A stretch of DNA of 36,042 bases, from contig CAZNBU010000001.1 of NCBI GenBank assembly GCA_964571035.1, forward strand, positions 5,533 to 41,574, written 5' to 3'. A program made the translations under genes and the position numbers. Under the pieces are notes generated by a model, which worked only from the letters and a program-made list of their open reading frames with translations, ran no database searches and was not told the DNA's origin. Position 1 is the stretch's first letter. The number at the start of each line of letters is the position of its first letter. The DNA comes from an uncultured Planctomycetaceae bacterium. Its GTDB lineage: Bacteria > Planctomycetota > UBA8742 > UBA2392. Below, in pieces: positions 2 through 1,264 of this stretch.

Positions 2-1264
2 GACGCCGACATCATCGGCACCCGCAGCCGCGTCGCCGACGCCGAGTGCATCGCCATCGTCTGGCGCGTGCTGAAGTCGCTGGGCCTGTCCGACGCGACG
101 ATCGGCGTGAACAACCGCAAGCTGTTCCGCGGGTTGCAGGGGCGCATCGGCGTCTCGGAGCCGTCGGTGATGGACGGTGTGATGCGCGGCGTCGACAAGT
201 TCGACAAAGTCGGCGAGAAGGGCGTGCGGGCTGAGTTGAAGGCGCTGGTCGGCCAGGGCGGCCTGAGCGAACCCGGTGTCGACCTGGTGTTCGACTTCCT
301 GAAGATCGCCGAAGCCAAGGTCTCCAACGCGCAGCGCGTTGACCAGCTTGAAGCGTTCCTTGGTGCCGGTGAAATGGGCGCGCAAGGTTGCGCCGAGTTG
401 CGCGAAGTGTTGCGTGCAATTGATGGCTTGGGCGTGCCGGACGACGTCGTCCGGGTGGACCCGACAATTGTCCGCGGGTTGGACTACTACACCGGCACCG
501 TGTTCGAAACCTTCCTCAAGGACCTGCCGGGGTTCGGCAGTGTCATGTCCGGCGGGCGCTATGACGGCCTGATCGGGTTGTTTGCGGGCGAAGAGATTCC
601 CGCCGTAGGGATCAGCGTCGGCATCGACCGGCTGATCAGCGCGCTGGAAGAGTTGAAGCTGCTGCCGAAGTCACGCAGCACCGCGGCTGTACTGGTGACG
701 GTGTTTTCGCCCGAAACGCTGGATTTCAGCCTGCGCGCAGCGCGTGAGTTGCGACGCGCCGGAGTTCCCACTGAACTGTACCTCGACACCAAAGCCAAGC
801 TCGGCAAGCAGTTGAAGTACGCCAGCCGCAAGGGCTTTCCGCTGGTCGTGATCGCGGGCTCCGAGGAAGTGAAGGAAGGCGTGGTCAGCCTGCGCGACAT
901 GGCGACCGGCGAGCAGCTACGCGTCACGATTGAGCAACTGCCGCAGGTGGCGCAGGACAACTATGTCGAGCCCGATCCCGGCACACCCACCGGCCGCAGT
1001 TGGGACTGGGCGTTCCGCGAAGACATGATCGACCGCGTGCCCGCCGTCGGCGGCGTGTTCCTGCTGCGCAACGACCGGCATGAGGTGCTCAAGTGCGGGT
1101 GGGCCGCGTACGGCAAGCTGCCGGAAACGGTGCGCGACAGCGTAACCGCCGAGCAACGCGCCGAGGTGGCTACGTTCGACTGGTACGAAATCCGCGATGA
1201 CAAGCTAAGCCAGATGCTGGCCGACTTCATGAATGAGAAACTGCAACCGAAGTTCGGCCCGTAG
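2..1264 (+). CDS. hisS: Histidine--tRNA ligase (HisRS), 5'-truncated by the window edge, with a non-canonical ~100-aa C-terminal extension
   Basis: The frame is open from nt 2 (DADIIGTRSRVADAECIAIVWRVLKSLGL...) to TAG 1262-1264. Class-II HisRS hallmarks are present: 'RGLDYYTGTVFE' and motif 3 'GGRYDGLIGLFAGEEIPAVGISVGIDRL'. An anticodon-binding domain follows ('AAVLVTVF...GKQLKYASRKGFPLVVIAGSEEVKEGVVSLRDMATGEQ'), which argues for HisRS rather than HisZ. Confidence 0.85.
   Translation, partial: DADIIGTRSRVADAECIAIVWRVLKSLGLSDATIGVNNRKLFRGLQGRIGVSEPSVMDGVMRGVDKFDKVGEKGVRAELKALVGQGGLSEPGVDLVFDFLKIAEAKVSNAQRVDQLEAFLGAGEMGAQGCAELREVLRAIDGLGVPDDVVRVDPTIVRGLDYYTGTVFETFLKDLPGFGSVMSGGRYDGLIGLFAGEEIPAVGISVGIDRLISALEELKLLPKSRSTAAVLVTVFSPETLDFSLRAARELRRAGVPTELYLDTKAKLGKQLKYASRKGFPLVVIAGSEEVKEGVVSLRDMATGEQLRVTIEQLPQVAQDNYVEPDPGTPTGRSWDWAFREDMIDRVPAVGGVFLLRNDRHEVLKCGWAAYGKLPETVRDSVTAEQRAEVATFDWYEIRDDKLSQMLADFMNEKLQPKFGP

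Follow-up and report, generated by a model that had tools for sequence, protein, structure and literature searches.

A predicted GIY-YIG-fold domain without catalytic residues at the C-terminus of a planctomycete histidyl-tRNA synthetase

The DNA analysed here, a stretch of 36,042 nucleotides from an uncultured Planctomycetaceae bacterium (assembly GCA_964571035.1, contig CAZNBU010000001.1; hereafter the window), begins inside hisS, the gene for histidyl-tRNA synthetase (HisRS). The hisS frame lies on the + strand, is open from position 2 to the TAG at 1262-1264, and encodes a fragment of 420 amino acids (aa). The last ~100 residues of this fragment (window 962-1261; hereafter the tail) have no Pfam coverage. 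We consider the tail to be a real fusion of a non-nucleolytic domain of the GIY-YIG fold to HisRS, with a probability of about 0.8. It is joined in frame to the only HisRS of its lineage, has the predicted GIY-YIG fold, has lost the catalytic residues, is acidic, is held by a flexible tether, and is under purifying selection.

Predicted fold and catalytic columns

The GIY-YIG superfamily is built on a domain of ~100 aa in which three beta-strands are surrounded by helices (PMC1564403). The AlphaFold2 model of the tail (100 residues, 23-row alignment) has a mean predicted local distance difference test score (pLDDT) of 88.5 and a predicted template-modelling score (pTM) of 0.78, with the domain itself at pLDDT 94-97. 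Its topology is helix, strand 1, strand 2, two short helices, strand 3, and long helix. When Foldseek was used to compare the model with the PDB, ranks 1-9 were all occupied by UvrC GIY-YIG domains (probability 1.00, template-modelling score (TM) 0.65-0.74, root-mean-square deviation (rmsd) 2.3-2.5 Å over 83-86 columns). A plant glutaredoxin (its GIY-YIG domain) and R.Eco29kI came next, and nothing further was significant. Judged by predicted topology and by its top fold matches in the PDB, the tail appears to possess the GIY-YIG fold.

Profile similarity also places the tail within the superfamily. A profile of the tails, aligned by hhalign to the N-termini of five planctomycete UvrC proteins, gave a probability of 96.4% (E 1.4e-9), and 94.9% (E 4.4e-8) when the standalone relative was left out of the tail profile. 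In other Planctomycetota genomes the tail profile matched UvrC N-termini at E 2e-6 and 2e-5, and a UvrC N-terminus used as a tblastn query recovered the tails at 26-30% identity.

The GIY-YIG domain at the N-terminus of UvrC (PDB 1ycz, 1yd0-1yd6) is thus the known structure that the tail resembles most, with the same predicted fold and topology over ~86 residues (TM 0.65-0.74, rmsd 2.4 Å). The two share a register that begins with P-x-x-x-G-V-Y and continues through 10 residues, x-x-G, a helix with an Arg, a third strand, and a long helix ending in 'P-K-F/Y-x', at ~21-27% identity. An earlier note on this DNA had proposed a module of the GIY-YIG/URI type, and the match of the predicted fold to UvrC domains, together with profile-profile probabilities of 95-96%, agrees with that proposal. 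Its motif assignments, in which GVF stands for GIY, KCG for YIG, and 'KLQPKFG' for 'kP.YN', are borne out by the alignments, and several catalytic positions are substituted as it had said; the Glu about which it was doubtful is lost (Ala87).

The numbering of UvrC K32, R39 and E76 used here is presumably that of the UvrC structure paper. Y19, Y29, Y43 and N88 of Thermotoga maritima UvrC are placed by PDB point mutants and by PMC2630997. Three alignments agree on the mapping of the tail residues, which are numbered from the first residue of the tail. UvrC Tyr29, Lys32, Arg39, Tyr43, Glu76 and Asn88 correspond to K, W, T, S, A and G in the tail, S60 being the window residue in the Tyr43 column; the other positions are listed in Table 1. 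In the UvrC model the YIG Tyr acts as the general base, and the motif-E Asn belongs to the UvrC-like lineage and is not universal. The elements that define the superfamily as a whole are the GIY and YIG motifs together with a central Arg and a C-terminal Glu (PMC1564403). In the window tail, the YIG Tyr, the central Arg, the metal-binding Glu and the motif-E Asn are all absent. Among relatives, position 44 is K, A, Y, S or F and W47 is nearly invariant. A conserved Arg, R58, lies two residues past T56, in the column of UvrC R41.

The charge of the domain differs as well. All 22 of the 22 HisRS tails have an isoelectric point (pI) of 4.5-5.2 and a net charge of -2 to -7, whereas UvrC GIY-YIG domains have a pI of 8.3-10.5. 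The UvrC domain is basic and stands at the N-terminus of an excision-repair nuclease, whereas the tail is acidic and stands at the C-terminus of a synthetase. In addition to the tail, the lineage has retained a normal UvrC whose motifs are canonical. A recent duplication of the 5′ end of the host uvrC was considered as a source of the tail and discarded, the host UvrC N-terminus being canonical and only ~25-30% identical to the tail.

The active restriction enzyme R.Hpy188I has a Lys at the position of the YIG Tyr, and the catalytic Arg can sit at a non-homologous position (PMC2630997). Consequently, K44 alone does not disqualify the tail as an enzyme. Unlike the tail, R.Hpy188I, an active nuclease, keeps its metal-binding Glu (E149), Arg and first Tyr and has a mostly positive surface. 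As far as sequence can tell, the missing metal ligand, the variable K44 and first Tyr, and the charge argue against catalysis.

The hisS frame and the distribution of the tail

The Pfam domains of HisRS stop at residue 318 of the fragment, and hisS runs for 99 codons beyond the anticodon-binding domain (Table 1). GC content at third codon positions (GC3) differs little between the tail (0.84) and the HisRS core (0.82). The NCBIfam hisS model TIGR00442 (cut-off 286.75 bits) scores 235 bits for the fragment and 429 bits once the piece lying upstream, across the scaffold gap that precedes the window, is added. The extension of ~100 aa that the earlier note had described is therefore real, with a GC3 like that of the core as it had stated, and the peptide strings it quoted are all found as written. 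Its boundary between core and tail, near '..QDNY', is matched by the tail-less HisRS proteins of sister genera, which end 0-3 residues from there.

Table 1. Features of the hisS frame in the window (coordinates are window positions; residue numbers of single motifs count from the start of the tail)
Feature	Position	Strand	Remarks
First ~39 hisS codons, probably a chimeric or variant contig end	2..118	+	Directly follows a scaffold gap of 10 N
C-terminal part of the class II HisRS catalytic domain	8..634	+	PF13393 tRNA-synt_His, E 8e-23, fragment residues 3-211
HisRS anticodon-binding domain	689..955	+	PF03129 HGTP_anticodon, E 2e-17, fragment residues 230-318
Pro/Gly-rich linker VEPDPGTPTGR, predicted disordered	965..997	+	Low pLDDT
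GIY-YIG-fold domain (predicted) without catalytic residues	998..1261	+	Tail residues 13-100, 88 residues
F33 = UvrC Y19 (Tyr of GIY; window G-V-F)	1058..1060	+	Most relatives G-V-Y, several F
K44-C45-G46-W47 = YIG-K columns (K44 = UvrC Y29, W47 = K32)	1091..1102	+	
T56-V57-R58; T56 = UvrC R39 (catalytic Arg) column	1127..1135	+	T/A/S in relatives
F72-D73-W74-Y75-E76, strand 3 signature	1175..1189	+	Invariant in all HisRS tails
A87 = UvrC E76 (metal-binding Glu) column	1220..1222	+	Ala/Cys in 22/22 HisRS tails
G99 = UvrC N88 (motif-E Asn) column	1256..1258	+	G/N/D/H/S in relatives
hisS stop TAG	1262..1264	+	Abuts the stop of a convergent 205-aa ORF (1265-1882, -)

Between the anticodon-binding domain and the tail domain, the models predict a flexible connection. 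In the tail model, pLDDT falls below 50 at tail residues 1-5 and 7-12, and in a model of a full-length relative it falls below 50 at residues 448-460, the tail fold being retained at pLDDT 85-93. The linker varies in both length and sequence among relatives. A disordered linker of ~12 residues thus probably tethers an independent domain. The full-length model has a pTM of only 0.59, so the position at which the tail docks is not readable from it.

The tail is conserved in relatives of the source genome. A search with the tail region of the HisRS fragment returned 23 proteins, 22 of which carry the tail at 57-82% identity. The tail-bearing proteins are nearly all 540-548 aa long with the tail in the same frame, and those that are named are annotated as histidine--tRNA ligase from metagenome-assembled genomes (MAGs) of Planctomycetota. 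In the 61 related genomes scanned, 16 of the 23 that belong to the same family contain one tail copy each, always in a long frame on hisS or on a hisS fragment at a contig end, and no close match was found outside the family. Another 13 tail loci are found in species-representative genomes, all of uncultured Planctomycetota, some of them on contigs of 2-3 Mb. At least 22 independent assemblies from four genera contain the fusion, contigs of 0.9-3 Mb included. The survey of orthologues that the earlier note had suggested shows no stop near nt 960 in the relatives, which read into the tail in frame.

Only one gene per genome tested scores above the TIGR00442 cut-off (382-404 bits in relatives), and the tailed enzyme is consequently the housekeeping HisRS. 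The remaining matches to the hisS profile are HisZ-like paralogues (112-142 bits), ThrRS and ProRS. A second canonical hisS, which the earlier note had thought worth checking for, was not found; this result rests on the near-complete relatives, each with one hisS, the source MAG itself being 76% complete. No second copy of the tail was found in the source genome.

The tail is under purifying selection at a strength similar to that of the core. Over 90 unsaturated pairs, the tail has a median pairwise ratio of nonsynonymous to synonymous substitution rates (dN/dS) of 0.205, compared with 0.232 for the adjoining HisRS core. The tail is found in genera g1, g3, g4 and g7 of the family, whereas g2, g5 and g6 have a canonical HisRS of ~442-452 aa and likewise lack the domain as a standalone protein. 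The tail is accordingly an accessory part of HisRS, since sister genera live without it. The base of the HisRS-core tree is unresolved, and a single origin of the tail on this tree was rejected because at least two gains or losses are needed to account for its well-supported branches. A more distant HisRS, P0028, has a tail with 35% identity to that of the window and a core resembling that of a neighbouring family, a distribution that hints at an older gain followed by losses.

The beginning of the window requires a caveat that lies outside the tail. A scaffold gap (N at G000:C1 5523-5532) directly precedes the window. Upstream of this gap, G000:C1:5018-5532 already encodes HisRS up to '..EIRINNR' in the family-consensus form, and window codons 1-39 are a divergent version of the homologous HisRS positions (DADIIGTRSRVADAECIAIVWRVLKSLGLSDATIGVNNR). 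GC3 of window 2-118 is 1.00, compared with 0.82 in the rest of the gene, and the closest relative (L033) agrees with the version before the gap rather than with window 2-118. Because a consensus copy lies upstream and these divergent codons have a GC3 of 1.00, the window start looks chimeric and the true gene would encode ~546 aa; the first ~117 nt are probably a chimeric or variant contig end. At its other end hisS meets the convergent 205-aa ORF at the junction TAGCTA, and this ORF has no Pfam match at E <= 0.1.

Relatives of the tail outside HisRS

A phmmer search of 1.84 billion representatives with the window tail alone matched HisRS fragments, P0028, and a free-standing 109-aa protein, P0030 (E 4e-5). 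The other matches were repetitive proteins, which we take to be spurious. Three standalone proteins, P0030, P0036 (VAX19685.1) and P0037, are 105-114 aa long and 27-36% identical to the tail. They share the W-x-W, VPAVGG and FDWY motifs with the HisRS tails and are the closest relatives outside HisRS. Unlike the HisRS tail, they are free-standing and keep GIY/F and YIG(S) (YIA in P0036) as well as the terminal Asn, and their last helix has an acidic residue. P0036 is named a GIY-YIG domain-containing protein in UniRef, and P0037 scores 21.4 bits on PF01541 (GIY-YIG), close to the cut-off of 22.6. The ancestor that became joined to the 3′ end of hisS was probably a standalone protein of this sort.

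The gene for the 114-aa P0036 (L055:5001-5345, GCA_900491345.1, a hydrothermal vent metagenome) lies 11 nt upstream of a parC-like gene, which is followed by a parE-like gene, and P0036 is found beside a type IIA topoisomerase pair in three independent contigs. Such a neighbourhood suggests that the free-standing form has a role related to DNA.

Among Pfam models, DUF7508 (PF24348) scores best on every tail tested, at 12-27 bits. It scores 12.5-18.2 bits on the tails of relatives, and only the distant tail of P0028 reaches the gathering cut-off (26.7 bits). The DUF7508 model cross-matches the N-termini of UvrC across the phylum, indicating that DUF7508 is a GIY-YIG-like family. FDWYE and SWDW are specific to the subgroup of HisRS tails and standalone proteins and distinguish it from DUF7508.

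DUF7508 is also found as a C-terminal appendage on an unrelated enzyme in another Planctomycetota genome. Locus L015:792-3407 (G044, contig 16) encodes an 871-aa flavin oxidoreductase with 2Fe-2S, NuoG-like, 4Fe-4S and GltD-like parts, and this protein ends in a DUF7508 domain (28.9 bits) that also matches the HisRS-tail profile (E 5e-4). Similar frames of 886-956 aa are found in other Planctomycetota. Since DUF7508 ends these Fe-S flavoenzymes, a dead GIY-YIG-like fold has apparently been appended to unrelated metabolic enzymes too.

Appended domains are a route by which aminoacyl-tRNA synthetases acquire functions beyond charging, well studied in eukaryotes and uncommon in bacteria. Known examples are the WHEP domain of eukaryotic HisRS and the C-terminal domains of the Trbp111/EMAPII type in MetRS. 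Like the tail, these appendages are small, flexibly tethered, confined to one lineage, and dispensable for the core reaction. Unlike the tail, they have other folds, and most of them either are basic and bind RNA or are known interaction modules. No appendage of the GIY-YIG fold on a synthetase was found in the literature searched, where the only paper with both 'histidyl-tRNA synthetase' and 'GIY-YIG' is unrelated and 'DUF7508' has no matches; the word 'synthetase' has zero occurrences in the 2006 survey of the GIY-YIG superfamily (PMC1564403). The GIY-YIG fold and superfamily, degenerate non-catalytic versions of it, DUF7508, and HisRS were all known already; the combination of HisRS with the GIY-YIG fold is not described in the literature searched.

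Possible roles of the tail

Given the lost catalytic set and the acidity, we read the tail as a pseudo-nuclease, which would serve as a non-catalytic binding module tethered beside the anticodon-binding domain. Rather than binding or cutting nucleic acid, it may bind a protein partner or a small ligand, or make a regulatory contact with the basic tRNA-binding face of HisRS, and from sequence we would put the chance of such a role at close to even. Binding to a partner or ligand, or folding back on the tRNA-binding face, would regulate or localise HisRS. The earlier note had suggested that the tail may be a degenerate nucleic-acid-binding module rather than an active nuclease; the loss of catalysis that it thought possible is supported, and its nucleic-acid role is disfavoured by the low pI of the tails.

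Several results weigh against the picture of a GIY-YIG-fold pseudo-nuclease. The earlier note had proposed a check against PF01541, and this model does not match the tail. The nearest Pfam model, DUF7508, scores only 15.0 bits on the window tail (E 0.028), below its 26-bit gathering cut-off. A profile hidden Markov model (HMM) match in the PDB to UvrC of B. caldotenax (E 0.011) vanished once P0030 was left out of the profile, a dependence that makes it weak evidence. A protein- or ligand-binding role would be argued only from the charge and the missing catalytic residues. An acidic net charge is compatible with a local RNA-binding patch, and stacking on bases could involve the conserved aromatics W14, W16, W47, F72, W74 and Y75. 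The first Tyr, K44 and R58 persist in most relatives, which leaves room for an unorthodox active site. Finally, the absence of the tail in g2, g5 and g6 means that its function is dispensable and could be weak.

The strongest alternative, in our view unlikely, is that the tail is an auxiliary tRNA- or RNA-binding domain that raises affinity or specificity for tRNA-His. The GIY-YIG domain is a fold that binds nucleic acid, and the tail is flexibly tethered right after the anticodon-binding domain, a position that resembles that of known appended tRNA-binding domains of other synthetases. The conserved aromatics are of a surface type, and the tail contains R36, R58 and R78. The three-dimensional organisation of a yeast RNase H1 domain is similar to that of GIY-YIG (PMC1564403), which can likewise be cited in favour of RNA binding. 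However, the HisRS tails are acidic without exception, whereas the UvrC domains are basic. The tRNA-His genes are alike in tail-bearing and tail-less genera, with an encoded G-1, C73, a GUG anticodon and an encoded CCA; no tRNA-His position co-varies with the tail (A37 versus G37 does not track it), and sister genera with a near-identical tRNA-His do without the tail.

ARAGORN also reports a second, unusual 72-nt tRNA-His(GTG) in the source genome, at G000:C457:1569-1640 on a contig of 3 kb; its upstream -1 position is not a G. The canonical tRNA-His, with G-1, C73 and an encoded CCA, is on C57. The second gene could be a contamination or a divergent paralogue.

The tail may also be a structural appendage of little consequence, a reading compatible with the losses in sister genera, to which we assign only what probability the other explanations leave.

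It is very improbable that the tail is an active nuclease or phosphodiesterase with a site of the Hpy188I type, in which Lys would replace the YIG Tyr, the Arg would have migrated, and the metal would be held by another acidic residue. R.Hpy188I is active with Lys, and the Arg is relocated in one branch of the family to which it belongs (PMC2630997). Moreover, GVY, K44 and R58 are found in most tails, the acidic residues D73, E76 and D80 are invariant, and the domain is under purifying selection. Against this, the column of the metal-ligand Glu is Ala or Cys in every HisRS tail, divergent members have A, Y, S or F instead of K44, and the first Tyr is Phe in the window and in several relatives. 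The Arg column holds Thr, Ala or Ser, the Asn column is variable, the domain is acidic, and a constitutive nuclease on an essential synthetase would have no evident rationale.

An artefact (a lost stop or a frameshift onto a small gene) or a decaying in-frame mobile GIY-YIG cassette can practically be dismissed: the source genome is a fragmented MAG of 689 contigs, the start of the window adjoins a scaffold gap and looks chimeric, and free-standing relatives of the domain exist, but the same in-frame fusion in so many independent assemblies rules out a lost stop or frameshift, each genome has one tail copy, the dN/dS of 0.2 and the codon usage equal those of the core, and no convincing terminal inverted repeats flank the tail (the best being 12 nt at 92% in DNA of 64% GC).

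The reading of the tail as a pseudo-nuclease could be extended, as a speculation to which we give little weight, to DUF7508-type domains in general. The dead GIY-YIG fold may be a reusable adaptor or regulator of PVC bacteria, gating the tRNA-binding face of HisRS as an acidic mimic of tRNA, or recruiting HisRS (and elsewhere an Fe-S flavoenzyme) to a shared partner. An unorthodox, Hpy188I-like active site acting on RNA is less likely.

A nuclease fold that has lost its chemistry and is yet selected on an essential enzyme is found here in a lineage without a cultured member. It adds an architecture, HisRS plus the GIY-YIG fold, to those of the superfamily, and DUF7508 gains a fold assignment. 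The practical impact will be modest until a partner or an activity is found. Related genera with and without the tail offer a natural comparison in which its contribution is testable. If the fold does act as an adaptor, histidine charging would be linked to another cellular signal in these bacteria.

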